A DNA stretch of 47,752 nt from a virus. The notes below the pieces were generated by a model. It searched no databases and was not told the DNA's origin. It saw only the letters and a program-made list of their open reading frames with translations. Shown here piece by piece: positions 3,503 through 47,682 of this stretch (positions are counted from its first letter, which is position 1; every line of letters starts with the position of its first letter). The stretch lies in IMG/VR virus record IMGVR_UViG_3300045988_118171. One strand, 5' to 3'. A program made the position numbers and the translations under genes.

Positions 3503-3593
3503 GTGCCCTTCTTTCCAATATATGCACTTTTAACAATGCCAACATTAGGAATTTGTGCATTTAGTCGATTTGTTCTTTTTGGTGTAAAAACTA

Positions 3594-3622
3594 TTGCATA
3601 TTCTGTTCTGTCGTTGTATTAT
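3594..3622 (+). promoter_or_regulatory. Sigma-70-type early promoter (TTGCAT-17-TATTAT); paralog of the promoter at 13719
   Basis: Hexamers and 17-nt spacer read directly. The downstream AGCACCATAaGGAACAAA is shared with the 13748 region. Confidence 0.55.
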
Positions 3623-3676
3623 AGCACCATAAGGAACAAACAAGATACAAAAAAGAACAATCAGGAGGAAACAGAA

Positions 3677-3877
3677 ATGAGACTTTACATTGAAGGACGC
3701 CGCAATGGCTACAGCCCAGATCAATGCGGGCACACGATGACTGTCCAGGAATTGATCGAATACCTTGAACAGTTCGACGAAGACACCGAAATCTTCTTAA
3801 AGAGCGACGGCGGATACACCTATGGCAACATCGATGAAACCAGCTTTGAGGAAAGCGACGAAGAAGACGCAGAGTGA
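3677..3877 (+). CDS. Small acidic hypothetical protein (first gene of the early operon)
   Basis: Start moved to ATG 3677 behind AGGAGG; the upstream part of track ORF 3503..3877 is AT-rich promoter DNA. C-terminus is EESDEEDAE. Confidence 0.6.
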   Translation: MRLYIEGRRNGYSPDQCGHTMTVQELIEYLEQFDEDTEIFLKSDGGYTYGNIDETSFEESDEEDAE

Positions 3878-3948
3878 CAGCCCTTCGGGGCTGGTAATGC
3901 GGGACCCGAAAGGGTGCGGTCACAACCCCGCGAGAAGGAGGAAATACC

Positions 3949-4796
3949 ATGAAGACTTTTGAGGTTGGAAAGACCTATACCATGCGAAGCATCGGCGACC
4001 ACGATTGTGTCTGGACCTATACCGTGGTCAAGCGCACCGCCAAGACCATCACTATCAGCGCCGGCCAGGAAACCAAGACCTGCCGCGTGAACGCCAAGAC
4101 TTCCGAGATCCGCAATGCCGAGAGCATCTATCCCCTGGGCCGCTACTCCATGAGCCCCGTCCTCTCTGCGGACGCCGAGGATGCCCCCGAAGAGGCTACC
4201 ATTGAGAAAGCTGCCACTGTCCCCATGAAATTCAAGAAGCAACCCAATGTTGCCTTTTTCTCCAGATACGTCCGCGAGGATGGGAAGATCACGATCACGA
4301 GCGTTGACCGCCAAATCAATGGTACATGGAAGAACGTCTTCGAGGTTACAGGCGAAAACGGCGCAGTTATTGACGTGCTTCCCCGCCTGAAAGACGCAAA
4401 AGCAAAATACGAAACTGAGCAGGGGTCCGAGGCCCCCATCGAGGCTGAAGAGGTGCAGGAAGCGCCCAAGGCTGCCGCAGAAGAAGCCCCCGACTTCAAG
4501 CTGAACCCCATGTGCGAGAAATGCGCCAACTATCCCACCGACTGCGCCGGAACCCACGAACAAGTCTGGACCGGCTGTGTCCACCGCGAGACTGCCCCTG
4601 ACGAGAACAGAACCTTTGCCCCGAAGAAGTTGCGGACCATGACCGACTCCAGGTTCTCTTTGACGAGAAACCCGACGAGGCCACCCGCGCCAAGCTGAAA
4701 CAGAACGGCTTTCGCTGGTCCCCCACGAACAGCGCATGGCAGCGCAAGCTCACCCCCAACGCGGAAATCGCAGCCCGCAGAGTTTTCGAGAAGTAA
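3949..4796 (+). CDS. Hypothetical protein with a broken reading frame (3949..4698, continuing in the -1 frame 4602..4796)
   Basis: Strong RBS. The tail of frame 1 (RTMTDSRFSLTRNPTRPPAPS) looks out of frame. The -1 frame reads EEVADHDRLQVLFDEKPDEATRAKLKQNGFRWSPTNSAWQRKLT and has no start codon of its own. Confidence 0.5.
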
Positions 4797-6935: not shown

Positions 6936-7164
6936 AAAATCTATCACTTGCGCCCAGCTCAGCGAGTTGGAAGATGCAGCAATCGTCGGTGGGGTCGATG
7001 GCTATCACAGACTGCTGGAGGACTACACTGGGATCAAGGCCGTTAGACATGATGTGTATCTGTATTACGATGCCGAGGGTAGATATGTCGGAGACAGCGA
7101 CAATACCCTGTTGGCCTGGATGCTAAAGAGGGCTGGCGTGGAGATTAAGGGGGGCAAGGAATGA
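6928..7164 (+). CDS. Hypothetical protein
   Basis: ATG 6928 behind AAAGGGAGGA. Confidence 0.5.
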   Translation: MVEKSITCAQLSELEDAAIVGGVDGYHRLLEDYTGIKAVRHDVYLYYDAEGRYVGDSDNTLLAWMLKRAGVEIKGGKE

Positions 7165-7526
7165 AAGACCTGACCTACCTGGAGAAGTACCGGGACACGC
7201 AAACCGAGCGTGATTACTACCACCGCCGGGGCGATTCCGGCAATGGTGCTTTCAAAGTGTACATCAACGGAAGATCGTTCTTCTGTATCGCCAGTAACGG
7301 CGGAGGATGGGAGCACGTCAGCGTGAGTCCCTGCAACCGCAAACGAGCCACGCCGCCCACCTGGGCTGAAATGTGCGAGATCAAGCGCATGTTCTTCGAG
7401 GACGAGGAAGCTGTTGTTCAGTTCCATCCGCCCCGCAGCGAGTATGTGAACATCCATCCGTACTGCTTGCACCTCTGGCGGCCAACATCTCAGGATATGC
7501 CCAGGCCGCCGAAGAAGTTTGTTTGA
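7161..7526 (+). CDS. Conserved phage hypothetical protein (GWEHVSVS...PTWAEM...HPYCLHLW pattern)
   Basis: ORF track; ATGA overlap with the upstream gene. The motif recurs in phage early regions (from memory). Confidence 0.6.
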   Translation: MKDLTYLEKYRDTQTERDYYHRRGDSGNGAFKVYINGRSFFCIASNGGGWEHVSVSPCNRKRATPPTWAEMCEIKRMFFEDEEAVVQFHPPRSEYVNIHPYCLHLWRPTSQDMPRPPKKFV

Positions 7527-7539
7527 TAGGGGGGATAAT

Positions 7540-7833
7540 ATGGCTGACTACATTGATCGGGAAGCCCTGCTGAAAGACGTAGCCAGAATCGGGGGATACC
7601 CGTGGCGCGAGTGGGAAACAGCGGAAGTGTTTGCTCTTGTGGCCAAACAGCCTGCCGTTGGTGTGGCCCCTGTTCGGTACGGTAAGTGGATAAGAGTCGG
7701 AAGCGGGACAGCGTGCAGCGAATGCATGACGGGCCTGAAAAGAACCACCGCCCTCAACGACGAGTGGGTGGATTTATCGGAAATGCCATACTGCCCAAAA
7801 TGCGGCGCGAAAATGGAGGCAAATCATAGCTGA
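7540..7833 (+). CDS. Hypothetical zinc-ribbon protein
   Basis: ATG 7540 behind GGGGGG. CSEC...CPKC motif. Confidence 0.55.
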   Translation: MADYIDREALLKDVARIGGYPWREWETAEVFALVAKQPAVGVAPVRYGKWIRVGSGTACSECMTGLKRTTALNDEWVDLSEMPYCPKCGAKMEANHS

Positions 7834-7858
7834 CACCATCAAATTCCCGACTAGCTAC

Positions 7859-8050
7859 ATGTCTACGGAAATGGCCGTATTCATCGTAAAGCACAGGCTG
7901 TCGTACTACGAAGGTGAAAAGTTCACCTTCGCGGACATGACCAATGCGATAGAGCGCGTTGCAACGTCCGACGAAGCGTGTTCGAGGCTGTCTAACGTGG
8001 ATTTTCAACGTGCATTGTGCTGGCTGTTTGACCACTATGATTTCACCTAA
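7859..8050 (+). CDS. Hypothetical protein
   Basis: ORF track only; weak RBS. Confidence 0.4.
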   Translation: MSTEMAVFIVKHRLSYYEGEKFTFADMTNAIERVATSDEACSRLSNVDFQRALCWLFDHYDFT

Positions 8051-8111
8051 CCGCCTCGATTCTGACGCGGTTAAAGAGGGCGATTTCGACCGGTTTAGAA
8101 AGGGGGAAACG

Positions 8112-8306
8112 ATGAATAACCACGAAGACCTGCTGAGCATGGACTCTTTGAATCTAGCATTATTCCTTGCGGCCTGCGGCGGCTGTCCGCCTCAGAAGAC
8201 GGTTTGCATTGAGGTTGTGTGTGACTGCGAATACTGTTGGCAAAAGTGGCTGGAAGCGCCACACCTGGAGGTAATGGAAGATGGAAATCCACTCCAACTT
8301 TACTGA
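8112..8306 (+). CDS. Hypothetical Cys-rich protein
   Basis: ATG 8112 behind AAAGGGGGA. Confidence 0.45.
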   Translation: MNNHEDLLSMDSLNLALFLAACGGCPPQKTVCIEVVCDCEYCWQKWLEAPHLEVMEDGNPLQLY

Positions 8307-8481
8307 TCTCAAGCCCTGCCCCTTATGCGGGGGCGGGGCCGAGCTGCACGACTCGCAGCGCAATCCTAGAGTCCCCATGTGGTGGGTACGATGCAAACTG
8401 TGTGGCGCGACCTCTGCGACGCACAGCACCAAAGAAAAGGCCGTCGCGGCCTGGAACGGGAGGACGTATGACAAGAGCTGA
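8281..8481 (+). CDS. Lar-family restriction-alleviation-like protein
   Basis: LKPCPLCGG...CKLCG...AVAAWNGR matches the Lar-family pattern (LKPCPFCG ... AWNRR). Confidence 0.65.
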   Translation: MEIHSNFTDLKPCPLCGGGAELHDSQRNPRVPMWWVRCKLCGATSATHSTKEKAVAAWNGRTYDKS

Positions 8482-8986
8482 ACAATGGCGGCCAATCCCT
8501 GGATACGGGGGCTGGTACGAGTTATCTAGGCACGGTGAAATCCGTTCCTGGTGTGTTACTGGCCCTAAAAAAAAGCGCCGGGACGAGCCTCTGATCCTGC
8601 GGCCATTTATGGCCCTGCACAAACGGACGCCAGAGCTGCAAATCACGCTCATGCGCAAGACGTATAGCGTGAAAATCTTAATGCGAGACATTTGGATGGC
8701 CGGACCGAAGGCGGGTATGCGAGTAACTTTCATTGATGGGGACCGCGCAAACTGCGCTTTACACAATCTGCGATATAGCCCCGTCGAAGAGGTCCGCACG
8801 AACCCACAGAACAGATGCCCCATTGCGAAATGCAAGCCGTGGGGAACTGTGATCGCCTATTACCGCAGCATGGCCGAAGCTGCCGAGAAAAACCACATCT
8901 CCCGCAGTGGGATGCAGAAACGAATAAACAACGAAACCCTGGCCGATGGTGTAATTTTCCGCCGGGCCAGTGAATTGGAGGGTTAA
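8468..8986 (+). CDS. Free-standing HNH homing endonuclease (NUMOD4 + HNH_3-like + C-terminal DNA-binding motif)
   Basis: Start moved to ATG 8468. Motifs: WRPIPGYGGWYELSRHGEIRS (NUMOD4) and FIDGDRANCALHNLRY (HNH). Confidence 0.75.
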   Translation: MTRAEQWRPIPGYGGWYELSRHGEIRSWCVTGPKKKRRDEPLILRPFMALHKRTPELQITLMRKTYSVKILMRDIWMAGPKAGMRVTFIDGDRANCALHNLRYSPVEEVRTNPQNRCPIAKCKPWGTVIAYYRSMAEAAEKNHISRSGMQKRINNETLADGVIFRRASELEG

Positions 8987-8988
8987 GT

Positions 8989-9477
8989 ATGAAAAATCGT
9001 GTACATAAGATGCTGGAAGCCCTGAACGCTTGCTCTGGCCGTTCCTGTGGCCTCTGCCCCTACACCAGCCCCCGAACAACTGCCTGCGAAAGGATGCTCA
9101 AGGATGACGCGGCTGACCTAATCTCAGACCTGTGGGGCATCATCTCCCAGCCCGTGCAGAACGCGCAGCAGGCGTCGCAGCTTGAAACTAGGGCCTCTAT
9201 CCTGGAAGGTGCCCGCAAGTGCGTCTGCGGCGAGCGAGAGGGACAGTACGGGACCCCAGAGGACAGCTTTTCTGCCATTGCTAGGCTATGGTCGGCCTAC
9301 TGCCAGGATAGGGATTTTTCCGGCGACGACGTGGCCTGCATGATGGCCCTGCTGAAAATCGCCCGAATCATCTACAACCCTGAGCACATGGACTCGTGGG
9401 TCGATGGCTGCGGCTATCTGGCCTGCGGTGCCGAGATCGCAGCGCGGCGGGCCAGCAAAAAGCTGGAGGGCGTGTGA
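8989..9477 (+). CDS. Hypothetical protein (C-terminal YG.PEDSF..IA.LWS...ALLKIARI...DSWVD pattern common in phages)
   Basis: ORF track; conserved-looking C-terminal domain. Confidence 0.6.
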   Translation: MKNRVHKMLEALNACSGRSCGLCPYTSPRTTACERMLKDDAADLISDLWGIISQPVQNAQQASQLETRASILEGARKCVCGEREGQYGTPEDSFSAIARLWSAYCQDRDFSGDDVACMMALLKIARIIYNPEHMDSWVDGCGYLACGAEIAARRASKKLEGV

Positions 9478-9630
9478 ATGAACAAGTTTATGAGCAGAAA
9501 GGCAATATTTATCGGGGTGACGCTTTTCATCGACATCTTGTGGCTCTGTGGGATTGCGTCGCTTCAAACAGCGGGCATTGCATCCTTTTATGGATTGATC
9601 TACAACCTCATGGAGGAACGAGATGACTAA
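9478..9630 (+). CDS. Small membrane protein (50 aa); absent from the ORF track
   Basis: Hand translation: MNKFMSRKAIFIGVTLFIDILWLCGIASLQTAGIASFYGLIYNLMEERDD. Abuts the upstream stop and overlaps the next start. Confidence 0.35.
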   Translation: MNKFMSRKAIFIGVTLFIDILWLCGIASLQTAGIASFYGLIYNLMEERDD

Positions 9631-9907
9631 AAAGCGATATATCAAGCTGCTCATGGCCCAGGGCCATAGTAGGAACTACGCGAACGAGTGTGCGCAGGAG
9701 GTGGCCGATGCAGGCGGCAGATGCAGCTATGAGGAAGCCTACACCCTTGCCTATGCCCTGGATCGCACGAACTGGATTTCTGCCGCACACCAGCTGGGCG
9801 AGGTGATTGAAAGCATCACGGCCAGTATGATTAAGGTCGTAAATGCGGTAGCGGCTGGAATCGCAGCGTTTGGCAAATCATTCCGGGATGCCTACGAAAA
9901 TGGATAA
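9623..9907 (+). CDS. Hypothetical protein
   Basis: ORF track. Confidence 0.5.
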   Translation: MTKKRYIKLLMAQGHSRNYANECAQEVADAGGRCSYEEAYTLAYALDRTNWISAAHQLGEVIESITASMIKVVNAVAAGIAAFGKSFRDAYENG

Positions 9908-9923
9908 ATACTGACGAATTGAA

Positions 9924-9953
9924 AGAGCCACCTCAATGGTGGCTCTTTTTTTG
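9924..9953 (+). terminator. Rho-independent terminator ending the early operon
   Basis: Stem AGAGCCACC / GGTGGCTCT followed by T7. Confidence 0.75.
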
Positions 9954-10077
9954 TGTCCAGATAAACAAATTTATACCTCTGTCCATTTCGGATATACTTT
10001 TGTTGGGAATTTTGGTATAGTCTGTAAAAACAAGTTCCTACGCTGTACCTTCCGTCAAACGCAGACTGGAGAACATT

Positions 10078-10254
10078 ATGAAAGACGATCGGCAGGAACC
10101 AATTAACATCTATATCAACATCATTGTTGGAGATGTTACAAACTCGTCCGTTGTCCAGGGAGGCATGGAAAATGTGGCTTCTCTGCTACGCCGAGAACAG
10201 CTCCCAGACGACATCATCAAGTACCTGGTCGAGCATATCCAGGACACGTCTTAA
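10078..10254 (+). CDS. Possible small ORF (58 aa) ending at the attP boundary
   Basis: Hand translation: [60 protein letters not shown]-rich. An extended -10 (TGGTATAGT) lies at 10013-10021. Confidence 0.3.
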
Positions 10255-10300
10255 TCTCTATCCTGCTGGTTATCCTAAAGAATCCCCATCAGGATGCAAA
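10255..10300. other. Candidate attP core for the serine integrase
   Basis: Imperfect inverted repeat ATCCTGCTGG (10260-10269) / CCATCAGGAT (10286-10295), 9 of 10 matched. It sits exactly where exonuclease III homology begins. Confidence 0.3.
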
Positions 10301-10663
10301 TCGGAAAAACGCCGAAAACCAATCATTGTCTGCGGGGACCTGAACGTTGCAGCAAGCGAGATCGACCTAAAGAATCCCAAGGCCAACCACAAAAATGCAG
10401 GCTTCACCGACGAAGAGCGGGGGAAGTTTCAGGAGCTTTTGGCCGCTGGCTTTACTGATTCATTCAGATACCTGTACCCCGACAAAGAGGGGGCCTATTC
10501 CTGGTGGAGCTACCGTTTCCATGCCAGGGAGAAAAATGCGGGGTGGCGGATAGACTATTTCCTGGTCGATGACTGCGCCAAGGATAAGATCGTAGACGCG
10601 AAAATACATAGTGACATTATGGGCAGCGACCATTGCCCGGTTGAGTTGGACATTGACCTATAA
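10301..10663 (+). pseudogene. xth: 3'-terminal fragment (about 118 codons) of exodeoxyribonuclease III; the N-terminal half of the enzyme is absent
   Basis: [35 protein letters not shown]...YSWWSYR...GWRIDYF...[11 protein letters not shown] matches the C-terminal half of ExoIII/ExoA. The upstream part of track ORF 10124..10663 is unrelated. Confidence 0.8.
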
Positions 10664-10666
10664 GCA

Positions 10667-10697
10667 AGGCCCCTGGCAGTTGCCGGGGGCCTTTTTC
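10667..10697. terminator. Bidirectional terminator between the xth fragment and the integrase gene
   Basis: Stem AGGCCCC..TGGCA / TGCCG..GGGGCCT, flanked by A and T runs. Confidence 0.7.
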
Positions 10698-12238
10698 TAT
10701 TCTTTCAGGTAGACGTCCAGGTGGACTTCTCCACCCTTGTTCCTACCGAAATCAACGCAATCATATTCGATTTTTCTTACGACAGTTTTCAGCAGGTCGT
10801 TTTTGGCCTTTGCCGGTACGTCTGGATCTTCAAGCGCACTCAGCGCCTCTGATACTCTCAAGATTTTCTCCCTGTAATCCACTGGTGGTGGGAGGCTCTT
10901 TTTGATATTCTCGATGCTGCCCTGCATGGCCTCAATTCGCTCTGATAGAACGCCTTTGCGCTCCATAAATTCCTGTTTCGTATAGATGCCGGACTCCAAA
11001 AAGTCGAACAGTTTCTCTCGCTTTTGTTCGAGCTTTTTCAGTTCAACATCCATCGAGCGCAAAATTTCCTCTTGCTGCTTATTCTTTTGGGCTTCCTCGT
11101 CGTTGTTCAGCTTAAATTCAAAGTCGCTGATGTAGTCCCGCAGTGCAGCGGCCACAGCAGCCACAACATCATCGTATGGGGCCGATTTTACCTTGCACGT
11201 CAGCGATGTTCTGTGAGACATACGGCCTTTAGTTTGTCCGCCGCGATGTGCAAAATCATTGTAGCTGATCCCCTTCCCGCAGTGCTTACACACCATGAGT
11301 CTGGCGAATGGGTTTGTTATCGTCGTCTGCGCTTTTAACGGCACCTGTCCGCAAAAAAGCGTTTGTGCCTTGTCGAATATTTCCTGTGATACAATGGCCG
11401 GGTGCTTTCCGTCCACAACCATGTAATCCTCTGGTGTGAGCCTGCGCTTTCTCTTGATGGTTCTCCCGTCGCTACCTTTCTCTTTGGAGACCTTTCGCCG
11501 GTTCCATCTGATCTTTCCTGTGTACAGCGTATTTTGCAGAATGTCCTTTACTGTGGCTCGGTTCCATTCGCTTTTCCCTGTTTGTGTAGGTATGCCCATC
11601 TCGCTCAAACGCCTTGCTATCTGGCCGCAGCTTAGTCCCTCATTGACAAACCAGTCAAACATCATTTTGACGTACTGAGACTGATCATTTAATTTCAGAG
11701 TCCGTTCTTTCTTATTTATCCGAATAATGTCATAGCCGTATGGAGGAAGGGAACCCACATAGTTGCCCTCTTTGATAGATTCTATCAAGCCGCGCTGCAT
11801 CCGACGGCGGATGGTTTTATACTCTCGGCGGCTCATAAACAGGCCGAACTCGAAGTATTCTTCATCAAATTCATTGTTTGGGTCGTAGGTTTTCGTCGGC
11901 GTGACAATCAGGGTATTTGACATAGAAAATGCCTCCGCCACTTCGCCCTGATCTTTCGTATTCCCACGCGCCAGACGCTCCACTTCCATGACCAGGACCC
12001 CTGCAAACCTTCCGGCGCAAACGTCATCAAGGAGCTGCTGCATCTGCGGGCGGTCTGCAATGGACTCACCGCTGACCATTTCTTCGTAGATTCTAGTGAT
12101 CTTCAAGCCTTTTTTGTCTGCAAGCTCCAGCAAGGCTGTCCGGTGTCGGGCCAGTGTTTCACCCTCACCTAGGGCCTCAAGGTCAAGGTCCTTGCGCGAT
12201 TTCCGAAGGTAAATAGCATAGTCGTCAGGCCGTTTCAT
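10697..12238 (-). CDS. Large serine recombinase (phage integrase)
   Basis: 513 aa. N-terminal resolvase domain (AIYLRKSRKD, catalytic Ser), recombinase domain, zinc-ribbon (CKHCG) and coiled-coil region. Confidence 0.9.
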   Translation of the reverse strand: MKRPDDYAIYLRKSRKDLDLEALGEGETLARHRTALLELADKKGLKITRIYEEMVSGESIADRPQMQQLLDDVCAGRFAGVLVMEVERLARGNTKDQGEVAEAFSMSNTLIVTPTKTYDPNNEFDEEYFEFGLFMSRREYKTIRRRMQRGLIESIKEGNYVGSLPPYGYDIIRINKKERTLKLNDQSQYVKMMFDWFVNEGLSCGQIARRLSEMGIPTQTGKSEWNRATVKDILQNTLYTGKIRWNRRKVSKEKGSDGRTIKRKRRLTPEDYMVVDGKHPAIVSQEIFDKAQTLFCGQVPLKAQTTITNPFARLMVCKHCGKGISYNDFAHRGGQTKGRMSHRTSLTCKVKSAPYDDVVAAVAAALRDYISDFEFKLNNDEEAQKNKQQEEILRSMDVELKKLEQKREKLFDFLESGIYTKQEFMERKGVLSERIEAMQGSIENIKKSLPPPVDYREKILRVSEALSALEDPDVPAKAKNDLLKTVVRKIEYDCVDFGRNKGGEVHLDVYLKE

Positions 12239-18576: not shown

Positions 18577-19136
18577 CCAGAGAAGAGACTCTTGCTATTA
18601 TGTCCGTCCTGCGGGCCGCTTATCCCACCTATTACCGAGATATGACGCGCCAAGAGGCCGAGAGTGTGGTCGCCCTGTGGGAAGAAATGTTTCGGGATGA
18701 TACCGCCGAAGTCGTGGCCCTGGCCGTGAAAGCTCACATTGCCAACGACAAGAAGGGCTTTCCGCCCCACATTGGGGCAATCAAGGAGGCCATTGTAAAA
18801 ATCACGACGCCTGAGCAGATGACCGAGGCGGAAGCCTGGAGCCTGGTAATCCGGGCTATCAGCAACGGGACGTATGGCTCAAAGAAGGAATTTGACGCGC
18901 TGCCGCCAGTGATCCAGCGGCTTGTAGGTAGCCCGAACCAGCTCAAAGAATGGGCAGCCATGGACGCGGACGTTGTTTCCTCTGTGGTGGCGTCTAACTT
19001 CCAGAGAAGCTATCGAGCCAGAGCAGCCAGCGAACGGGAGATGCTGAGTCTCCCTGGAGATGTGCGCCAGGCGATGCAGAGCATTGCGGCAAGTCTGGCT
19101 CTGCCTGAGTTGTCCGCAGGGGGGGCAGGAAAATGA
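18573..19136 (+). CDS. Possible helicase-loader-like replication protein (G39P-like pattern)
   Basis: Position after the organizer. AAYPTYY...W..MF.D......A...H.....FPPHIGAI pattern. Weak call. Confidence 0.4.
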   Translation: MTREETLAIMSVLRAAYPTYYRDMTRQEAESVVALWEEMFRDDTAEVVALAVKAHIANDKKGFPPHIGAIKEAIVKITTPEQMTEAEAWSLVIRAISNGTYGSKKEFDALPPVIQRLVGSPNQLKEWAAMDADVVSSVVASNFQRSYRARAASEREMLSLPGDVRQAMQSIAASLALPELSAGGAGK

Positions 19137-19696
19137 TCGGAACCATCCTAGCAAATAGAACAGCTGCTGACCGCAACAAGACTGATTTCTACGAGACGCC
19201 GCCGGAGGTCACGAAAGCGCTGCTGGATTTTCTGGAGCAGCGAGACTTCCTGATTCCTGGGCAAAGCGTTATCTGGGAGCCAGCCTGTGGGGCTGGGAAA
19301 ATGGCGAAGGTCCTGGAGGGACGCGGTTATCAGACCGTATCTACTGACCTGTACGAGTATGGATACGGAGAAGCTGGCGTCGATTTCATGTCGAACGCAA
19401 GGGCCTGCGACTGGATTATCACGAACCCCCCCTTTTCCCGCGCTGCCGAGTTCATTGCGCGAGCGTTTGATCTCGGTAAGCCCTGTGCTATCTTGGTAAA
19501 ATCCCAGTTTTGGCACGCAAAGCGGCGCATTGAGCTGTACCGGAGGAATCCGCCGTCTTATGTGCTCCCGTTGACCTGGCGGCCCGACTTCCTGTATGGG
19601 GCCAAATCAGGCAGCCCGACGATGGAAATTATCTGGACGGTATGGACAGGGACCCATCACGCGGCGAAATACGTTCCGCTGGAAAAGCCGGAATGA
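19133..19696 (+). CDS. Orphan N6-adenine DNA methyltransferase
   Basis: Motif I EPACGAG and motif IV NPPF. No adjacent restriction gene. Confidence 0.75.
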   Translation: MIGTILANRTAADRNKTDFYETPPEVTKALLDFLEQRDFLIPGQSVIWEPACGAGKMAKVLEGRGYQTVSTDLYEYGYGEAGVDFMSNARACDWIITNPPFSRAAEFIARAFDLGKPCAILVKSQFWHAKRRIELYRRNPPSYVLPLTWRPDFLYGAKSGSPTMEIIWTVWTGTHHAAKYVPLEKPE

Positions 19697-22578: not shown

Positions 22579-22585
22579 AGATTGC

Positions 22586-22624
22586 TTTTCTCTTTTTCTT
22601 TTATTTATTTTCTTTTTCTCTTTT
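22586..22624. repeat. 39-bp perfect mirror repeat; polypyrimidine on the + strand (37 of 39 C/T)
   Basis: Checked base by base around the centre at 22605: TTTTCTCTTTTTCTTTTATTTATTTTCTTTTTCTCTTTT. Confidence 0.95.
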
Positions 22625-22625
22625 T

Positions 22626-23010
22626 ACATGGCTCCTCAACGTATAGGTAACTAGGTGCGGTGCAATCCCGCAGGGAGCCACCACAGAGGGCGTGATCCTC
22701 TGGCATTTCTCATATCTCCTCCCAAGAATATATATGACCACAACCAGGTAAGGGTCACGCAGGGGAAAGCCCAGGCAGCAGCCGAGGCAATACCACCCTG
22801 TGCTCCAGTGCAATTCTGGTGAGCCTGGACCCCTCAAGGATAGGACACTGCACGAGGCCGCTGTGCTGCCCTGTGCCGCGTCGGGACACGAGGGAATGTA
22901 GTTTGACTATGCGAGAAGAAAAATGCGGCACAAGCGATTCTGCGAGGCGTGAGAGAGTTTTCGCGGGTCCTTCCGACGGTCAAACGCTACTGTGGTGCTC
23001 GCGAGCCCAT
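22626..23010 (+). ncRNA. Candidate structured non-coding RNA region (tRNA-like minihelix, T-loop hairpins); alternatively a cos/packaging region
   Basis: No credible ORF or RBS across about 500 bp in an otherwise gap-free genome. Stems listed in the findings. Strand inferred from a single G-U pair. Confidence 0.3.
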
Positions 23011-23084
23011 TTTTTGCCTAGTTTTGAAATTTTGAAAATCGGCCATTTCGTTACCACGGGCCGAACTGTAAGAGGTGGACAACC

Positions 23085-23882
23085 GTGAAAAACATAGCTG
23101 CAATCAACCAGGAACGCAGGCGCATTGATGCCCTGAAACCTGCGGAGTACAATCCGAGGAAACGGCTGCAACCTGGGGACTCTGAGTACGAAGCTCTGAA
23201 ACGGAGCATCGAGACGTTTGGCTACGTTGATCCTATTATCGTCAACAAAGACGGTACAGTGATCGGCGGACACCAACGTCTTTTTGTTTTGGCTGACCTG
23301 GGATTCCTTGAAGCCGACGTTGCCGTTGTGGACCTCAACAAGCAGGACGAAAAGGCCCTGAACATTGCCTTGAATAAGATCAGCGGCGAATGGGATGAGG
23401 AAAAACTGGCGGCCATTTTCTCCGAGTTGAAACTGGATGGATACGACGCCACTGTTTCCGGCTTCCAGGATGACGAGATTGCCAGCCTCATCTCTGGGGT
23501 GGTGGCCGAGGAAGCCGAGGCTGCCGAGCAGTACAGCCGAAAGGTGGACGTCCCACACTACGAGATTACCGGGGAGACCCCAAAAATCAGCGAACTGTTC
23601 GACCAGTCAAAGGCCCTGGCTCTGCTGGACGACATCGAGAGCGACGGAAGCATCAGCGAAGAGGAACGGGAGTTCCTGAAACTTGCTTCCATGCGTCACG
23701 TCGTTTTTAATTACCGAAACATCGCCGAGTATTACGCCGCCGCCAGTCCTGCGATGCAGGGACTTATGGAAGATTCAGCCCTTGTGATCATCGATGTGGA
23801 CAGAGCGATTGCCAACGGCTATGTAGACCTGTCCAAAGTTGTTGAGGGCATTCTTGCTGACGGAGATGCTGACGGTGCGTGA
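23085..23882 (+). CDS. ParB-like N-terminal (ParB/Srx nuclease-fold) domain protein with unassigned C-terminal domain
   Basis: GTG start behind AGAGGTGG. Motifs LKPAEYNPR, FGYVDPIIVNKDGTVIGGHQRL, NKISGEWD. Confidence 0.75.
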   Translation: MKNIAAINQERRRIDALKPAEYNPRKRLQPGDSEYEALKRSIETFGYVDPIIVNKDGTVIGGHQRLFVLADLGFLEADVAVVDLNKQDEKALNIALNKISGEWDEEKLAAIFSELKLDGYDATVSGFQDDEIASLISGVVAEEAEAAEQYSRKVDVPHYEITGETPKISELFDQSKALALLDDIESDGSISEEEREFLKLASMRHVVFNYRNIAEYYAAASPAMQGLMEDSALVIIDVDRAIANGYVDLSKVVEGILADGDADGA

Positions 23883-24738
23883 CGACTTTGCTGTCTTTAT
23901 CTTGACACATGGCAGGGCTGATAACGTAGTTACGCTCAGGACCCTGGAGCGGCAGGGGTACAGAGGACGTTGGTACCTGATTATCGACGACGAGGACGCC
24001 ATGGCTCCGATTTACTATGAGAAATTCGGGAAGGATCACGTCGTCACATTCTGCAAGGCTGCTGCTGCCGACAGAACTGACACCATGGACAACTTCAACG
24101 AGCATCGAGCTATTCTGTACGCCAGGAATGAGAGCTTCCGAATTGCGCGGGAGCTTGGACTGATGTATTTTTTGCAGCTCGACGATGACTACTCCATTTT
24201 TATGCTCAGGTATCCTGATGGCAGTAAATTGGCCCACTTGACGCTCACGGGAAAAAACCTGGAGACGCTATTCGAGGCTATGATCGACTTTCTGGATTCC
24301 TCTGGGGCGCTGACCGTGGCGCTGGCTCAAGGCGGCGACTATATTGGGGGCCTTGCCGGTGGCGCTTACGAAAAACGCTTGCTGCGTAAGGCCATGAACA
24401 CGTTTTTCTGCCGAACTGACCGCCCGATAGAGTTCCGAGGGACCATGAACGAGGATGTTACGACATATACCACGCTGGGGAGCCGGGGGGACTTGTTCTT
24501 CACTGTCGCGGATGCCTGCATTGCTCAGTTGCAGACACAATCTCTGAGCGGCGGCATGAGCGAGGCGTATTCTGAATCTGGGACCTACTTAAAAACTTTC
24601 TATTCGGTCATGTCTATGCCGTCCTGCATCAAGGTCAGCATAATGGGAGAAGGACACAAACGCATCCACCACAGAATCAACTGGGAGTGCTGCGTCCCTA
24701 AAATCCTGGACGAAAAATACAGAAAGGACGTTGACTGA
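23866..24738 (+). CDS. GT-A-fold-like glycosyltransferase candidate (family not recognised with certainty)
   Basis: FAVFILTHGRADNVVT beta-strand start, YFLQLDDDY (DxD) motif, about 290 aa. Start uncertain (23839, 23866 or 23876). Confidence 0.4.
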   Translation: MLTVRDDFAVFILTHGRADNVVTLRTLERQGYRGRWYLIIDDEDAMAPIYYEKFGKDHVVTFCKAAAADRTDTMDNFNEHRAILYARNESFRIARELGLMYFLQLDDDYSIFMLRYPDGSKLAHLTLTGKNLETLFEAMIDFLDSSGALTVALAQGGDYIGGLAGGAYEKRLLRKAMNTFFCRTDRPIEFRGTMNEDVTTYTTLGSRGDLFFTVADACIAQLQTQSLSGGMSEAYSESGTYLKTFYSVMSMPSCIKVSIMGEGHKRIHHRINWECCVPKILDEKYRKDVD

Positions 24739-25697
24739 TGCTAGGAATCACTGGCGACAAGATGCTGTCGCACCTTGACAGGATCGTCGGAGACCACAGG
24801 CCCATAACAGCCGACGTGTTTCTGACCAACTACTGCAACAACAGTTGCCCGTACTGCACATACCGTCGCTGGAACCTGGAGGACGGCGCGTACTCGATGG
24901 GCTATGACGAATTTGTCCTGTATGCTGAACGGCTGCTGTCGTTTGGAGTGCAGGGCATTATCCTGACCGGGGGCGGAGAACCTACCGTCTGCCGGGATTT
25001 TGAAAAGATCACGGCATGGATGGAGTCGCGCTCAATTCACTACGGAATCAACACGAATCTCAATCGGATGGTCCGTATCAAGCCTGACTATCTCAAGGTC
25101 AGTTTGGACGGCTGGGACGAGGATAGCTACGCCGAGCGCCGGGGCGTCCGGCATTATCAGCTCGCACGAAAAAATATCCAGGCGTATGCAGCATGGAAGC
25201 GAGAGAACAGCCCTAGTACGTCCCTGGGTATCCAGTGTGTGGTCAAATCTGTGGAAGATGTGGAAAAGTTCTTCTCTGCCAATAGGGATTTGGACGTTGA
25301 CTACATCGTTTTCAGGCCGGAAGAAAGCACCGGCGGGAAAGCCTACGCTGGGGAATCTGCGCGGGCGACTGCTGCTGAAATTATTCAGGCCGTGAATAAT
25401 CTTACAGAGATAGACAGCCGTGTTGTGTGCAATTTCAAGTGGCATTTGCTGGGCGTCCAGGAGCGCGATTGCGTGGCTGCCTGGTCGCAAATAGCCATGA
25501 ATGAGCGTGGCGGCATTATGTTCTGCTGCCACAAGCCGTACCAAGTCCTGGGCCACATTATGGACGAGGATATTCTGGAGAAAAAGGCGGCTGCTGTAAC
25601 GGATATGCGAACCTGCGATGTTCCGTGTAGGCTGACAGCGCCAAACGCTTTTGTAGCCAGCACAATGGCTGAGAGAAAGGACGCTTGTTTTTTATGA
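24738..25697 (+). CDS. Radical SAM enzyme with a SPASM/twitch-like C-terminal Cys pattern
   Basis: CNNSCPYC (Cx3Cx2C), LTGGGEPT, then C-x13-G-x4-C (DCVAAWSQIAMNERGGIMFCC) and CDVPC. TGATG overlap with the upstream gene. Confidence 0.85.
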   Translation: MLGITGDKMLSHLDRIVGDHRPITADVFLTNYCNNSCPYCTYRRWNLEDGAYSMGYDEFVLYAERLLSFGVQGIILTGGGEPTVCRDFEKITAWMESRSIHYGINTNLNRMVRIKPDYLKVSLDGWDEDSYAERRGVRHYQLARKNIQAYAAWKRENSPSTSLGIQCVVKSVEDVEKFFSANRDLDVDYIVFRPEESTGGKAYAGESARATAAEIIQAVNNLTEIDSRVVCNFKWHLLGVQERDCVAAWSQIAMNERGGIMFCCHKPYQVLGHIMDEDILEKKAAAVTDMRTCDVPCRLTAPNAFVASTMAERKDACFL

Positions 25698-25717: not shown

Positions 25718-26278
25718 ATGGCAGAACAGAGCAACTTACAACCGACGGCTGTGATAGCCCAGATATTTGGCGTCTCTGTCCGCCGAGTGGAGCAGCTAAA
25801 GGCCGAGGGTATCATAAAGGGCCACGGGAAGCCGACGAAGTATGATCTTCTGCCGACGATCAAGGCGTACATATCCTACCTATCCGACAAGGCACATGGG
25901 CGGGAGAAGAAGCAGACCGATGCACAGTTGGCAACAGCGAAGCTGGAGGCCGAGAAGCGAATCAAGGTCGCCAAGGCGGAAATGGCCGAGCTGGAGCTAC
26001 GCGAGTTGAAAGGTGAGCTGCACAGGGCGTCTGACGTTGAGGCTATCACGACGGACCACGTTATGTTTTTGCGCTCCATGCTTATGGCGCTGCCTGGTAA
26101 GGTGGCCGTAGATATGGCCGCGATACAGTCCGCGCCGGAGGCTGCGGAGCGCATGAAACAGGAGGTATACAACATCCTTGGGCGGCTTGCCTCATATCGG
26201 TACGACCCTGACGAATACAAAGAGCGAGTGATGGAAAGGCAGGGCTGGAATGAGCGACAGGGAGACGACGACGATTAA
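25718..26278 (+). CDS. Terminase small subunit (Nu1-like HTH plus coiled coil)
   Basis: N-terminal HTH (IAQIFGVSVRRVEQLKAEGII). Position and overlap with terL. Confidence 0.65.
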   Translation: MAEQSNLQPTAVIAQIFGVSVRRVEQLKAEGIIKGHGKPTKYDLLPTIKAYISYLSDKAHGREKKQTDAQLATAKLEAEKRIKVAKAEMAELELRELKGELHRASDVEAITTDHVMFLRSMLMALPGKVAVDMAAIQSAPEAAERMKQEVYNILGRLASYRYDPDEYKERVMERQGWNERQGDDDD

Positions 26279-28193
26279 AAAACGTCGTATGCGTTCCGTA
26301 GATCGGACCTTCGCCCGTTCCTTTGCAAACTACACGCCCCCTGCCGACCTGACCGTTTCCGAGTGGGCAGAGGCCCACAGAGTTCTGTCCAGGGAAAACA
26401 GTGCCGAGTCTGGCCCGTGGCGCAATGCCCGGACCCCGTACCTAGTGGAGATCATGGACGCTTTTACCGACCCGAAGGTCGAAAAAATAAGTCTGGTGGC
26501 TTCATCCCAGGTCGGCAAGTCCGAGCTGGAGCTGAACATCATCGGCTATATCATCGACCAGGACCCCGGCTCAATCCTGTACATCCAACCGACGGTTGAC
26601 GACGCGAAGAAATTCTCCCGGCTGCGTATTGCGCCGATGATTCGAGATAGCCTGACGCTGCGGACGAAGGTCGCGGACATCAAAAGCCGGGACAGCGGCA
26701 ACACCATGTTGCAAAAGAGCTTTCCCGGCGGGATGCTGACCATCGTCGGCTCCAACAGTGCCAGCGGCCTTTCCTCTACCCCGGCGAAGTACGTCCTTGG
26801 CGACGAGCGTGATAGGTGGGCCCTATCGGCAGGGACCGAGGGCGACCCCTGGGCGCTTGCTGAGGCCCGGACGACGACGTTTTACAATTCAAAGATGGTG
26901 GATGTATCCACCCCGACGGATAAAGAGGCCAGCCCCATTGCCAAGTCGTTCAACGAGGGCACGAGGGAACGCTGGTGCCATAAATGCCCGCACTGCGGGG
27001 AGTATTCCAACATCGTTTTTGACAACATCAAATTTGATTTTGAGACTGTCGGAAGCGGCAGAAAAAAGGATTACATCGTAAATTCTGTTTCGTGGAGCTG
27101 CCCGGAGTGCGGCTGCCTGTCCAGTGAGGACGAAATGCGTAGGCAGCCAGCAGAGTGGATAGCCGAGAACCCCGAAGCCTATGACAAGGGGCATAGATCA
27201 TTCTGGCTAAACGCCTTTTCTTCGCCGTGGCAGGCGTGGTCAAAGGTAGTCTATTCGTTTCTGGTTGCTCGAAAGGACCCGCAGCGTCTCAAGGTTGTCT
27301 ACAACACAATGCTTGGGGAACTCTGGGAGGATCGCGGAGACCTGGAGGACGAGGACACCATGCTGGGCCGCCGTGAAGATTACGGCCACCGAGACGACGG
27401 GACCCCGGTAGAACTGCCAGAGGGCGTCCTGGCTCTGACGTGCGGTGTCGATACGCAGGACGACCGCCTGGAGTATGAGGTCTTGGGGCACGGCCACTAT
27501 GGCGAAACCTGGGGCATCAAAAAGGGCATTATCATGGGCGACCCTGCTTACGACGAACCCTGGGAACGGCTGGACGACGTTCTGGAGCACGTTTACCGGT
27601 TCCGGGATGATAGAGGGCTGACCATAGCCCGGACGTTCGTAGACAGCGGCGGGCACAAGACTCAGCACGTCTATACCCAGTGCAGGGCGCGGCTGCATAA
27701 GCGCGTTTTTGCAATAAAAGGTCAGGGCGGGGACGGAATACCGTTCACCAAGCCGCCCAGCAAGGTCAAAATCATAGTCAACGGGAAAGCGATGGGCCAA
27801 ACTTGGCTCTACGTCCTGGGCGTTGACGCAGGCAAGGCGGACATATTTGCCGCCCTGAAAGTACAAGAAGCCGGTCCGAAGTTCTGTCACTTCCCGAAGG
27901 GGGAGCAACGGGGCTACGACGTGGCTTTTTTTAATGGGCTTTTATCCGAAAAGCTGGTTATGAAGTCCGAGCGAGGCCGGACGCGCTGGGCGTGGGTGAA
28001 GCTGCCGGGGCATGAGCGAAACGAGGCCCTAGACTGCCGAAACTATGCGCTTGCTGCGTTCCGGTCCTGGGACCCTGACCTTGACGCCGTGGAGCGCAGG
28101 CTTCGGGGCGTTGGGGATTCTGCGGAAACAAAACAGAAAACACGGCGGCGCGGTGTGGTCAAGCGCAGAACGTCCGCCGGTGACGATTGGTAG
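26250..28193 (+). CDS. Terminase large subunit, lambda gpA family
   Basis: 647 aa. SEWAE..R.L....SAE.GPWR...TPYL.EIMDA and Walker-like SSQVGKSE. Confidence 0.9.
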   Translation: MSDRETTTIKKRRMRSVDRTFARSFANYTPPADLTVSEWAEAHRVLSRENSAESGPWRNARTPYLVEIMDAFTDPKVEKISLVASSQVGKSELELNIIGYIIDQDPGSILYIQPTVDDAKKFSRLRIAPMIRDSLTLRTKVADIKSRDSGNTMLQKSFPGGMLTIVGSNSASGLSSTPAKYVLGDERDRWALSAGTEGDPWALAEARTTTFYNSKMVDVSTPTDKEASPIAKSFNEGTRERWCHKCPHCGEYSNIVFDNIKFDFETVGSGRKKDYIVNSVSWSCPECGCLSSEDEMRRQPAEWIAENPEAYDKGHRSFWLNAFSSPWQAWSKVVYSFLVARKDPQRLKVVYNTMLGELWEDRGDLEDEDTMLGRREDYGHRDDGTPVELPEGVLALTCGVDTQDDRLEYEVLGHGHYGETWGIKKGIIMGDPAYDEPWERLDDVLEHVYRFRDDRGLTIARTFVDSGGHKTQHVYTQCRARLHKRVFAIKGQGGDGIPFTKPPSKVKIIVNGKAMGQTWLYVLGVDAGKADIFAALKVQEAGPKFCHFPKGEQRGYDVAFFNGLLSEKLVMKSERGRTRWAWVKLPGHERNEALDCRNYALAAFRSWDPDLDAVERRLRGVGDSAETKQKTRRRGVVKRRTSAGDDW

Positions 28194-46123: not shown

Positions 46124-47017
46124 TTATGCAACTTCCAACAAACTGCGGTAATCCATTGGTGCAAGGCAATTTAGACGATGCTGACGCCGTTGGTAGTTGT
46201 AGTAATGAATGAATTGTCCTACCGCATCCACAAGCTCTTCATAGGTTTCAAAATGGTTGAGATAATACATTTCACACTTCAGGATGCCCCAGAAGCCCTC
46301 CATCGGGCCATTGTCAATACATCTGCCAACACGGGACATACTTTGCCGCATTCCCTGTTTTTCCAGCATATCCTTGAACTGCCTGTTCGTGTACTGGAAT
46401 CCCCGGTCACTGTGAAATAATGGGTGTGCATCCGGGTACTTCTGGATTGCCAAATCAAAGGTCTCAAATACGAGCTGGTTGTTGTTGTGCCTGCCAATTG
46501 CAAAGGAAACGATATCTCTACCCTTCAAGTCCAGAATGGCACTGAGATAGGCTTTCCCACCCTCAGAGCCATATTTCATTTCTGTAACATCGGTGCACCA
46601 TTTCTCGTTTACGGTGTTGGCTGTGAATTCTCTGTTCAGAATATTTTCGACAGTTACTTCCGGCTTAGACCGCTGGTATGCCGGACGTTTTCTGCGGATG
46701 ACAGCAAGAAGGCCGACAATATGTACCAATCGATAGAACCGTTTCAGGTTGTACTGTTTTTCATGGGTAGCGTTGTACTCGTCCGCAATTCGGCGGTAGC
46801 CATAGGTTCCGTTGTGTTCGGCGTAGATCAAGCCAATATCGTGCAGCAAAGCCTCGTTCTCAAGCTCGCTGCTGCTCTTGGATCGGTGTGTCCATTTATA
46901 GTAACTGGAACGATTCAGGTTCAGAATGTCACAAGTCTCGGTGATTGCATACGCCTCTTCGTGCATTTTCTGAACACAAATGTAGAGATATTCCTGTCTT
47001 ACTACGCTCAGCGCCAC
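46124..47017 (-). CDS. IS3-family transposase OrfB (DDE / rve integrase domain)
   Basis: WCTDVTE...HSDRGFQYT...DNGPMEGFWG motifs. Confidence 0.9.
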   Translation of the reverse strand: MALSVVRQEYLYICVQKMHEEAYAITETCDILNLNRSSYYKWTHRSKSSSELENEALLHDIGLIYAEHNGTYGYRRIADEYNATHEKQYNLKRFYRLVHIVGLLAVIRRKRPAYQRSKPEVTVENILNREFTANTVNEKWCTDVTEMKYGSEGGKAYLSAILDLKGRDIVSFAIGRHNNNQLVFETFDLAIQKYPDAHPLFHSDRGFQYTNRQFKDMLEKQGMRQSMSRVGRCIDNGPMEGFWGILKCEMYYLNHFETYEELVDAVGQFIHYYNYQRRQHRLNCLAPMDYRSLLEVA

Positions 47018-47682
47018 CTCCTTTCGAGTTCCTCGAGTTTTTTTAGCACTGCATTCTCCGTTTCCAATCTTCTGTTTCGGGCTTCCAGCATCCGGTTCTC
47101 GGCGCGCAGTTTCTCCACTTCTGTCATCTCAGATTCGGCCTTACGTTTACCACGCTTGTCTACCAGACCTTCCGCACCTTTCTCGTTGTATTTCCTGACC
47201 CATGAATAGATTTGCTGGTAACTCACTCCGTACTTCTCGATCGTGGCAGGGTAGTCATTTCCGTGCTCGATGCAGTAGCTGACAATTTCAATCCGTTCTT
47301 CGTATGTCGTAGTCCGTCCTTTGGTCATATAGATATCACTCCCTCGGCCGCTGCTGGGCCGTAATTCCTTATGACCATTATACATCTTAATCCAGTTTTG
47401 CAACTGTGTTCTTGATGAAATTCCGTACTTTTTACAGATTGCTGCGTAACTCCCTTCTCCGTTAAGATAGGCTTGTACAGCAGATTCCTTTAACTCTGAT
47501 GAATATTTTCTATTTCCTGTATTCTTAAATCCTTCTGCGCCAAATGTTTCATATCTTCTTATCCAGTCCTGAAACGTTCGATGATGTACTCCCTGCTTTT
47601 TTGCTTCTGCGTTCTGGCTCGTTTCTCCTCTCTTGTATCGTTCTACGGCTTTAATGATTTTGTCTATATTTTCTTTAGGCAT
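47008..47682 (-). CDS. IS3-family transposase OrfA (double HTH plus leucine-zipper-like tail)
   Basis: Start moved to the second ATG (47682) behind GGGGAG. HTH repeats and the C-terminal LEARNRRLETENAVLKKLEELE. Confidence 0.85.
   Translation of the reverse strand: MPKENIDKIIKAVERYKRGETSQNAEAKKQGVHHRTFQDWIRRYETFGAEGFKNTGNRKYSSELKESAVQAYLNGEGSYAAICKKYGISSRTQLQNWIKMYNGHKELRPSSGRGSDIYMTKGRTTTYEERIEIVSYCIEHGNDYPATIEKYGVSYQQIYSWVRKYNEKGAEGLVDKRGKRKAESEMTEVEKLRAENRMLEARNRRLETENAVLKKLEELERRWR
47038..47044 (-). promoter_or_regulatory. A7 slippery site for -1 frameshifting that produces the OrfAB transposase
   Basis: The - strand reads CTA AAA AAA CTC. The -1 frame continues KKTRGTRKEVALSVVRQEY into OrfB. 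Confidence 0.7.

Follow-up and report, generated by a model that had tools for sequence, protein, structure and literature searches.

The window analysed here is a 47,752-nucleotide stretch of viral DNA (IMG/VR virus record IMGVR_UViG_3300045988_118171), and it carries, immediately upstream of its terminase genes, three coupled open reading frames (ORFs) that encode a ParB/Srx-fold protein (ORF1), a TET-associated glycosyltransferase (TAGT; ORF2), and a radical S-adenosylmethionine enzyme (rSAM; ORF3). Comparison with related loci shows that the ParB and TAGT genes are the core of this arrangement, and that the rSAM gene is an optional accessory, which follows glycosyltransferases in general. 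We tentatively propose, as a reading that falls a little short of being probable, that the genes form a ParB-assisted DNA glycosylation cassette, in which the two-gene core is complemented by an accessory radical sugar-tailoring enzyme.

Conservation of the gene arrangement

The trio is not a chance arrangement: more than 100 independent loci show these genes in the same order. Eighty viral contigs were seeded with the rSAM, 75 of which are informative in that they contain enough upstream sequence. The order ParB–TAGT–rSAM, with one or two TAGT genes, is present in 72 of these 75 loci (61 with a single TAGT and 11 with ParB–TAGT–TAGT–rSAM) and in 11 of the 13 genomic loci seeded in the same manner. 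An earlier note on this DNA, made from the sequence alone, had set co-conservation of the three genes in relatives as a test of its proposal, and the proposal passes that test. The tandem TAGT pairs of the relatives are as found in multi-sugar pathways, and two variants of the order were also observed, namely ParB–rSAM–TAGT (locus L156) and rSAM–ParB–TAGT (locus L173). Downstream of the trio in the rSAM-seeded loci, there is nearly always an ORF of 110-190 aa followed by one of 400-650 aa. Where checked, these neighbours are terminases of different families (GpA in the window and Terminase_6N/6C in L181), and in L001 an unassigned protein of 629 aa is encoded. It follows that the cassette is exchanged between packaging modules that are not related.

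When the TAGT was used as the seed, ParB was found to precede it wherever upstream sequence exists, the two genes usually overlapping and typically lying just before terS/terL. About half of the TAGT-seeded loci carry the rSAM. TAGTs at least 57% identical to ORF2 have an adjoining rSAM, with the exception of L133, and the rSAM-adjacent TAGTs constitute a clade of their own. The ParB–TAGT pair occurs without the rSAM in 40 metagenomic loci, where it is mostly followed by terminase-sized genes. The three genes had been presented in the earlier note as one module; the ParB–TAGT core and its constant pairing hold, but the indivisible three-gene unit does not, given the 40 loci that lack the rSAM.

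The distribution of the core was extended by tblastn against GenBank phages. The genome of Lactobacillus delbrueckii phage c5 is arranged as cos (1-11), ParB (90-863), TAGT (835-1713), and then terL, and the pair lies ahead of terS in Lactobacillus gasseri phage phi jlb1. It is also found in Nocardia phage NTR1, Vibrio jumbo phages, lambdoid phages of E. coli and Salmonella, Escherichia phage vB_EcoS-683R6 (5220-6936), and the archaeal virus HHTV-2, in which it is located upstream of terL. E. coli ynaK, encoding a ParB/Srx protein, together with an unnamed gene for a 310-aa TAGT homologue, is present in 1580 of 5426 complete genomes (29%), near full length in 889 of them, and this prophage core sits between trkG with the lysis genes and terS. 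A literature search on ynaK and ydaY returned no functional study. Core-only cassettes are found in aerobic and aerotolerant hosts.

Coupling of the three genes

The three genes (Table 1) are tightly coupled in the window. ORF1 is preceded by a well-matching Shine-Dalgarno sequence, AGAGGTGG, 7 nucleotides (nt) 5' of its GTG start codon. Its stop codon at 23880-23882 lies within ORF2, giving an overlap of 17 nt when counted from the ATG at 23866, and the sequence TGATG at 24736-24740 combines the ORF2 stop codon (TGA, 24736-24738) with the ORF3 start codon (ATG, 24738-24740). ORF3 ends at 25697, leaving a gap of 20 nt before the ATG of terS at 25718. The coordinates, overlaps, and gap described previously for three coupled ORFs just before terS are all borne out. 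From this coupling, we infer that the trio may belong to one late transcript, and a scan for promoters and terminators detected none inside the trio block.

The ParB/Srx-fold protein

ORF1 is composed of an N-domain (residues ~8-128), an acidic helical linker, and a conserved C-terminal helical domain (~160-245). It matches phrog_620 (1e-54), and its homologues carry precomputed PF02195, although ORF1 alone scores 21.7 bits against this Pfam family (ParB_N), under the cutoff of 26.3. The profile of the 28-member ORF1 family matches ParB-N, Spo0J, and Noc in the PDB (E 7e-7), the matches ending at about residue 150-190, and the AF2 model of ORF1 (pLDDT 80) retrieves ParB structures with Foldseek (E 1.7e-8). 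In addition, G61-G62-H63-Q64-R65 and YNPR are invariant in 28 homologues. Despite the sub-cutoff Pfam score, ORF1 can be assigned from its sequence and predicted model to the ParB/Srx N-domain with a GxxR phosphate-binding motif; the same domain had been recognised earlier from YNPR and GGHQR, and the PHROG, profile, Foldseek, and motif data all back it.

The first ~150 residues of ORF1 are 65-79% identical to the N-terminal half of 447-aa ParB–N6_N4 DNA methyltransferase fusions. A kinship to phage fusions of this type had been pointed out in the earlier note, and the identity confirms it, in agreement with a survey in which such fusions are enriched in prophages (PMC12704722). Residues ~160-245 are confidently modelled as a helical domain with the invariant pattern RH…F…AEY…Q.LME.S.LV..D, for which a sequence search of the PDB gave no match. 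This domain is common to the ParBs that precede a TAGT in Lactobacillus phage c5 and E. coli prophages, and the homology extends over the full length (41% identity to c5 ORF1 and 34% to the E. coli YnaK-like ParB). Judged from these alignments, the C-terminal domain is specific to TAGT-linked ParBs.

ORF1 gave no match to a helix-turn-helix (HTH) family in Pfam and NCBIfam scans, and no parA was detected among the window ORFs scanned, which include most ORFs of at least 130 aa outside the head and tail genes, with small ORFs and most structural genes lying beyond the scan. Lacking a central HTH, and a ParA partner among these ORFs, ORF1 does not appear to be a canonical chromosome-segregation ParB. 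Its architecture is compatible with a nucleotide-binding domain followed by a C-terminal domain and no DNA-binding domain, the layout published for the ParBs of 5mYOX clusters.

ORF1 is also very acidic (pI 4.4, net charge -25), as are four ParB–DNA methyltransferase fusions (P0208, P0212, P0229, and P0239; net charge -30 to -38). Such strong acidity is unexpected for proteins thought to act on DNA. The charge of ORF1 was considered as an argument against DNA targeting and was dropped because the methyltransferase fusions are as acidic.

The glycosyltransferase

ORF2 matches the Pfam family TAGT (PF20691) with 144.5 bits (E 5.5e-42), compared to a cutoff of 27.5, over profile positions 1-201 of 205, and phrog_842 with 5.7e-68. 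R17, D106-D107-D108, and E196-D197 are conserved at 97-100% in 116 TAGTs and correspond to the R…DDD…ED(Y/F) motifs described for phage GT-A DNA glycosyltransferases (bioRxiv 10.1101/2023.12.21.572611). By these sequence features, ORF2 is unambiguously a TAGT with intact catalytic motifs, which sharpens the GT-A-like layout and DxD motif reported previously into a family assignment. PF20691 takes in the T6-type second glucosyltransferase and DNA base glycosyltransferases (PMC13390438; bioRxiv 10.1101/2023.12.21.572611). The median pI of TAGT family members is 8.7. A sequence search of ORF2 against the PDB returned spurious RecA-repeat matches only. The rSAM was also considered as a maturase of the glycosyltransferase, and this was rejected, as no residue or Cys is specific to the rSAM-linked TAGTs.

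The radical SAM enzyme

ORF3 scores 47 bits against Pfam Radical_SAM (PF04055; cutoff 29.5). Among 28 homologues, C33-x3-C37-x2-C40 (CNNSCPYC) and G78-G79-G80-E81 (GGGEPT) are invariant, and so are five further Cys residues in C245-x12-G258-x4-C263, C264, and C293-x3-C297. These sequence data place ORF3 in the radical SAM superfamily, as had been recognised from the same two motifs. The twitch/SPASM-like character of the auxiliary Cys pattern, also proposed earlier, holds as a pattern, but the spacing given for it (C-x13) does not, the first interval being x12. Moreover, no Pfam SPASM match was obtained, and N_Twi_rSAM of NCBIfam was matched with 32 bits compared to a cutoff of 170. The search for ORF3 homologues gave 614 at E<1e-5, with lengths of 311-338 aa among the matches listed.

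Foldseek matches of the ORF3 model are SuiB, DesII, viperin, BlsE, and anSME (E 1e-9 to 1e-7, identity 11-19%). The match to viperin (pVip) reaches 28.7 bits in NCBIfam, for which the cutoff is 180, and 28 bits in PADLOC (E 3e-7), where it covers residues 26-180 only; by the curated full-length profile, ORF3 would not be classified as a viperin. It shares with BtrN, DesII, BlsE, anSME, and viperin the rSAM core, a CX9-15GX4C-type motif, and fold-level similarity, and is additionally linked genomically to glycosyltransferases, whereas its identity to them is only 11-19% and it reaches no curated family cutoff. We know of none of these five enzymes that works with a DNA glycosyltransferase.

Hosts and partners of the radical SAM gene

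The named hosts of rSAM-bearing cassettes are Blautia, Lachnospiraceae, Muriventricola (Oscillospiraceae), Clostridium, and Phascolarctobacterium, and, judged on these named hosts, the accessory is confined to phages of strictly anaerobic Bacillota.

Homologues that share 48% identity with ORF3 and 62-64% with each other occur directly after a GT8 glycosyltransferase gene in three distinct lineages (L094/L179, L180, and L190). In L094 (2099-6954), the GT8–rSAM pair faces HddA, GmhA, and HddC–GmhB, which represent the complete gene set for GDP-D-glycero-alpha-D-manno-heptose, in an otherwise cellular context. This suggests that the GT8-linked cellular sub-clade of the rSAM serves an uncharacterised radical-modified heptose or hexose glycan. 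Furthermore, podovirus MW202801.1 from Manatee Spring encodes a full-length rSAM ('Fe-S oxidoreductase') that is 26% identical to ORF3. It belongs to a run of six genes after the major capsid gene (6980-11643), in the order of rSAM, glycosyltransferase, PhyH dioxygenase, methyltransferase, NodB-like deacetylase, and second glycosyltransferase, which is a candidate module for tailoring a virion or DNA glycan. The GT8 pairings and the podovirus cluster indicate that the constant partner of the rSAM family is a GT-A glycosyltransferase and not ParB or DNA-metabolism genes.

Acceptor-making enzymes

No TET/JBP, ThyS, Thy1, C5-methyltransferase, DpdA, or Que gene was matched among the scanned window ORFs with Pfam and PHROGs, which agrees with the absence of TET/JBP and pyrimidine hydroxymethylase genes claimed in the earlier note; the association of a TAGT with either of the latter as supplier of its acceptor is not found here. 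The 114 neighbour clusters of the 40 rSAM-less ParB–TAGT loci likewise contain no TET/JBP, while Thy1, C5 DNA_methylase, and DUF5131 were matched once each, as judged by Pfam scans listing the best 25 of 82 families and by individual scans of 10 right-sized neighbours, none of which gave a match. In the annotated complete genomes of c5 (31.8 kb) and phi jlb1 (38.3 kb), there is no entry for a hydroxymethylase, dioxygenase, or rSAM. The sole other DNA-modification candidate among the scanned window ORFs is predicted at 19133-19696 on the plus strand (187 aa); it matches phrog_799 'DNA methyltransferase' (1e-52) over positions 202-369 of 458 only, and its Pfam N6_Mtase match is weak and sub-cutoff.

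Comparison with known systems

The closest published precedent is provided by the 5mYOX clusters. A ParB homologue without a DNA-binding domain activates its cognate 5mYOX thymine dioxygenase on double-stranded DNA (dsDNA) (O'Toole et al., PNAS 2026, PMC13229309), and 5mYOX pathways co-occur with glycosyltransferases (31%), ParBs (27%), and terminases (19%) (PMC13229309). It had been proposed before that ParB steers modification enzymes during packaging (Burke et al., PNAS 2021, PMC8256090). The cassette resembles these clusters in having a ParB, apparently without a DNA-binding domain, beside a putative post-replicative DNA-modifying enzyme, in the frequent GT-A and terminase genes, and in the idea of ParB acting at packaging. 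However, no TET/JBP is found in the scanned window ORFs or the 40 related neighbourhoods, an rSAM is present instead, and the constant partner of ParB is a glycosyltransferase rather than an oxidase.

Compared to the TAGT and phage GT-A enzymes, such as the T6-type beta-glucosyl-HMC-alpha-glucosyltransferase and the JGT-like enzymes (Pyle et al.), ORF2 has the same active-site motifs and a family score of 144 bits, whereas the characterised members use 5-hydroxymethylcytosine (5hmC), 5-hydroxymethyluracil (5hmU), or a sugar thereon, for which no maker was found among the window ORFs scanned. The ParB–N6_N4 methyltransferase fusions upstream of terminase genes share the N-terminal 150 residues with ORF1 at the identity given above, the matching stretch falling in methyltransferase genes of Streptococcus prophage records. 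Unlike them, ORF1 has a helical domain of ~100 residues in place of the methyltransferase half, and its catalytic partner is encoded by a separate, coupled gene.

In view of these precedents, the statements of the earlier note that the module is undescribed and that no described pathway fits are too strong, since neighbourhoods of ParB, GT-A, and terminase genes and the role of ParB as an activator of modifying enzymes have been published (PMC13229309, PMC8256090, bioRxiv 10.1101/2023.12.21.572611). The idea linking ParB, glycosyltransferase, and terminase is thus already in print. What appears to be new is the combination of ParB and TAGT with an rSAM in one cassette, the confinement of this cassette to anaerobes, the observation that the rSAM generally accompanies glycosyltransferases, and the absence of a detected enzyme that would make the acceptor. 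The literature examined on phage DNA modification and ParB, which does not extend to the original TAGT paper (Iyer et al. 2013), makes no mention of a radical SAM partner. A survey of phage glycosyltransferases reports 'annotated viperins' beside their pathways; these may include the rSAM family of ORF3, given its weak 28-bit pVip matches.

Proposed mechanism and alternatives

In the proposed glycosylation cassette, ORF1 would serve as an NTP-binding adaptor or activator that gates or tethers ORF2 on phage DNA once this has been replicated, at about the packaging stage, by analogy with the ParBs of 5mYOX clusters. ORF2 would transfer a sugar onto phage DNA. ORF3 would be coupled functionally to the glycosyltransferase and not to ParB, and would most likely be a tailoring enzyme that oxidises, epimerises, or dehydrates, by radical chemistry, either the nucleotide-sugar donor or the sugar once it has been transferred; phages with the trio would accordingly attach a non-standard sugar. 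This role is suggested for the rSAM because its gene is optional, pairs with GT8 by the GDP-heptose genes, and is found in the podovirus glycan cluster. The family memberships, catalytic motifs, gene coupling, synteny, and distribution described above are direct observations, from which we infer DNA as the acceptor, the glycosylated atom, the timing, and the type of reaction carried out by the rSAM. Going further, the cassette could place a radical-tailored sugar on DNA without any 5-hydroxymethyl-pyrimidine made by a known enzyme, either through anaerobic synthesis of the acceptor by the rSAM or through direct glycosylation of a canonical DNA position by ParB–TAGT; we consider this extension possible but doubtful.

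Several points weigh against the proposal. The characterised TAGT acceptors are all hydroxyls (5hmU, 5hmC, a sugar, and Ser/Thr in GREB1), and unmodified DNA bases offer no hydroxyl acceptor. No maker of a hydroxymethyl handle was found in the scanned window ORFs, nor is one annotated in c5 or phi jlb1. ORF1 has a net charge of -25 and no HTH; the methyltransferase fusions are equally acidic, however. ORF3 has only generic structural matches (TM 0.5-0.6), and its model is poor over the C-terminal third (pLDDT <50). The rSAM also occurs without a nearby ParB or TAGT in L072 (2761-3738) and L076 (5983-6948), where it is flanked by a MuF-like head gene on one side and by the scaffold and capsid genes on the other; for L076, neither partner was found in ~11 kb of upstream and 6 kb of downstream sequence, with ~9 kb of the contig outside this view. 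These two solitary genes are poorly explained by every model. In L091, the rSAM stands alone before terS, and it is also solitary in L029. Lastly, the phage glycosyltransferase survey found no base-modification partner in ~65% of the contigs and judged these to be 'less likely' to act on DNA.

Such points raise the question of whether DNA is the target at all. The TAGT, with a sugar tailored by the rSAM, could instead modify a protein of the packaging machinery or the virion, or else a polymer of the host envelope, ParB being a mere regulator or scaffold. The lack of a hydroxyl on unmodified bases, the strong acidity of ORF1, and the 65% of phage glycosyltransferase contigs without a base-modifying partner would be in line with this, as would the location of the rSAM within head-gene modules (L072 and L076) and, in MW202801, beside glycosyltransferases, NodB, and methyltransferase after the capsid gene. 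Moreover, the TAGT-family member GREB1 is reported to glycosylate a protein (PMC7968844), and the solved structure nearest to the phage GT-A enzymes is that of TarP, a wall teichoic acid glycosyltransferase (bioRxiv 10.1101/2023.12.21.572611). However, the obligate partner of the TAGT has a ParB N-domain that is also fused, with up to 79% identity, to DNA methyltransferases, and a ParB of like kind activates a DNA-modifying enzyme on dsDNA (PMC13229309). The median pI of 8.7 for TAGT members also speaks for DNA. Furthermore, the pair is usually located immediately ahead of the packaging genes, in bacteria and archaea alike and whatever the structural module that accompanies it, and its position therefore tracks DNA packaging and not any one structural module. 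On balance, a non-DNA target is judged to be possible but rather unlikely.

A different view of the rSAM, which we find distinctly unlikely, retains DNA as the target and makes the enzyme an oxygen-independent stand-in for TET/JBP that supplies 5hmU or 5hmC to the TAGT in an anaerobic, base-J-like pathway. The reaction would begin with ParB-helped hydrogen abstraction from the C5-methyl group of thymine or 5-methylcytosine; the second electron would pass to the auxiliary cluster, and quenching by water would yield the hydroxymethylated base for glycosylation by the TAGT. The neighbourhood is indeed the published 5mYOX one with an rSAM in the place of the dioxygenase, all named hosts of the rSAM-bearing cassettes are strict anaerobes, and no 5mYOX or ThyS match is present in the scanned window ORFs. 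The auxiliary Cys cluster is of the twitch/SPASM-like kind seen in rSAM enzymes that perform two-electron oxidations, the gene order is variable (L156 and L173), and the rSAM is solitary in some phages, as expected of a stand-alone base modifier. This view is opposed by the 40 loci and the c5 and phi jlb1 genomes, which show ParB–TAGT with neither an rSAM nor an annotated 5mYOX; since such core-only pairs exist, the TAGT must have an acceptor that is independent of the rSAM. In addition, close homologues of the rSAM pair with GT8, once in a chromosomal GDP-heptose cluster without a link to DNA, and a distant homologue resides in the glycan-tailoring cluster of MW202801. Nor is any radical SAM hydroxylase of DNA methyl groups known. 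It is very improbable, finally, that the rSAM is a viperin-like nucleotide modifier engaged in defence or counter-defence that has come to occupy the same insertion hot-spot as ParB–TAGT by chance. Accessory genes are known to accumulate ahead of terminase genes, viperins are among the Foldseek matches of ORF3, weak pVip matches exist (28 bits in PADLOC and 28.7 bits in NCBIfam), and 'annotated viperins' have been reported beside phage glycosyltransferase pathways. Nevertheless, these matches are limited to the generic rSAM core (26-180), with 28.7 bits compared to the required 180, and viperins are not known to be equipped with an extra Cys cluster like the five residues of ORF3. An accident is also at odds with the 96% co-occurrence, the start/stop overlaps, and the fact that the rSAM also pairs, independently, with glycosyltransferases of a second family.

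Genomic setting and other features of the window

Table 1. Coordinates of the cassette and the adjoining features in the window
Feature	Position	Strand	Assignment and remarks
Gene-free stretch upstream of ORF1	22579-23084		506 nt; tentatively a cos or late-promoter region
ORF1	23085-23882	+	ParB/Srx-fold protein of the TAGT-linked (YnaK-like) family; 265 aa, GTG start
ORF2	23866-24738	+	TAGT-family GT-A glycosyltransferase; 290 aa from ATG 23866, frame open from TTG 23839
ORF3	24738-25697	+	Radical SAM enzyme with twitch/SPASM-like C-terminal Cys cluster; 319 aa
terS	25718-26278	+	Terminase small subunit, phrog_57 (8.8e-37)
terL, lambda GpA type	26250-28193	+	GpA_ATPase (3.4e-77), GpA_nuclease (1.4e-82)

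The apparent content of the whole window is that of a temperate tailed-phage genome with a Clostridia-like gut bacterium as host. A serine integrase is encoded at 10697-12238 on the minus strand, and genes for YqaJ/RecT recombination, DnaD- and G39P-type replication, RusA, and a HicB-like antitoxin are all located before the trio. The two terminase genes after the trio are accompanied by the baseplate genes GPD/Baseplate_J/Tail_P2_I, an amidase gene, and an IS3-family transposase gene. The stretch upstream of ORF1 contains no convincing ORF, Rfam match, or notable repeats, and its predicted fold is not significant (z = -0.01). Its tentative description in Table 1 is by analogy with the Lactobacillus phages, since cos lies 79 nt upstream of the ParB gene in c5 and a 1.4-kb gap precedes the ParB gene in phi jlb1.

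Three other observations were made elsewhere in the window. A full-length Twister-P5 ribozyme (RF02684) is found at 3868-3931 on the plus strand, with 55.8 bits compared to a gathering threshold of 37.6 (E 5e-9). It is situated where a small plus-strand ORF (3503-3877) meets an orphan ORF of 305 aa on the minus strand (3820-4737), and the latter has no Pfam, PHROG, or PADLOC match. The IS3-family transposase pair (HTH_Tnp_1/HTH_28, then rve) on the minus strand at 46124-47697, between the tail-fibre region and the end of the window, was apparently inserted in the phage genome. The plus-strand ORF at 10124-10663 directly adjoins the serine integrase gene. Its match to the endonuclease/exonuclease/phosphatase family is limited to the C-terminal end of the profile (positions 141-225 of 225), and it may represent a host gene that integration has disrupted or a phage remnant.

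Implications

Post-replicative hypermodification of phage DNA is currently explained by a methyltransferase or dioxygenase that makes a hydroxymethyl handle, and the dioxygenase step needs oxygen. The cassette, by comparison, combines a DNA-type glycosyltransferase and a ParB without a detected handle-maker nearby, and these are joined by an rSAM in strict anaerobes. If DNA is the target, this would point to an oxygen-independent chemistry of DNA decoration or to a new linkage between sugar and DNA. Tractable models are available in the uncharacterised core of E. coli (ynaK and its neighbour) and in the cultured Lactobacillus phages c5 and phi jlb1. If true, the proposal would matter for the evasion of restriction and CRISPR in the gut virome and for the nanopore and restriction analysis of gut phage DNA, and the cassettes would be a source of new DNA-modifying enzymes. 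A new hypermodification chemistry, if it exists, would also reach other carriers of the ParB–TAGT core, among them Lactobacillus phages and the prophages present in 29% of complete E. coli genomes.

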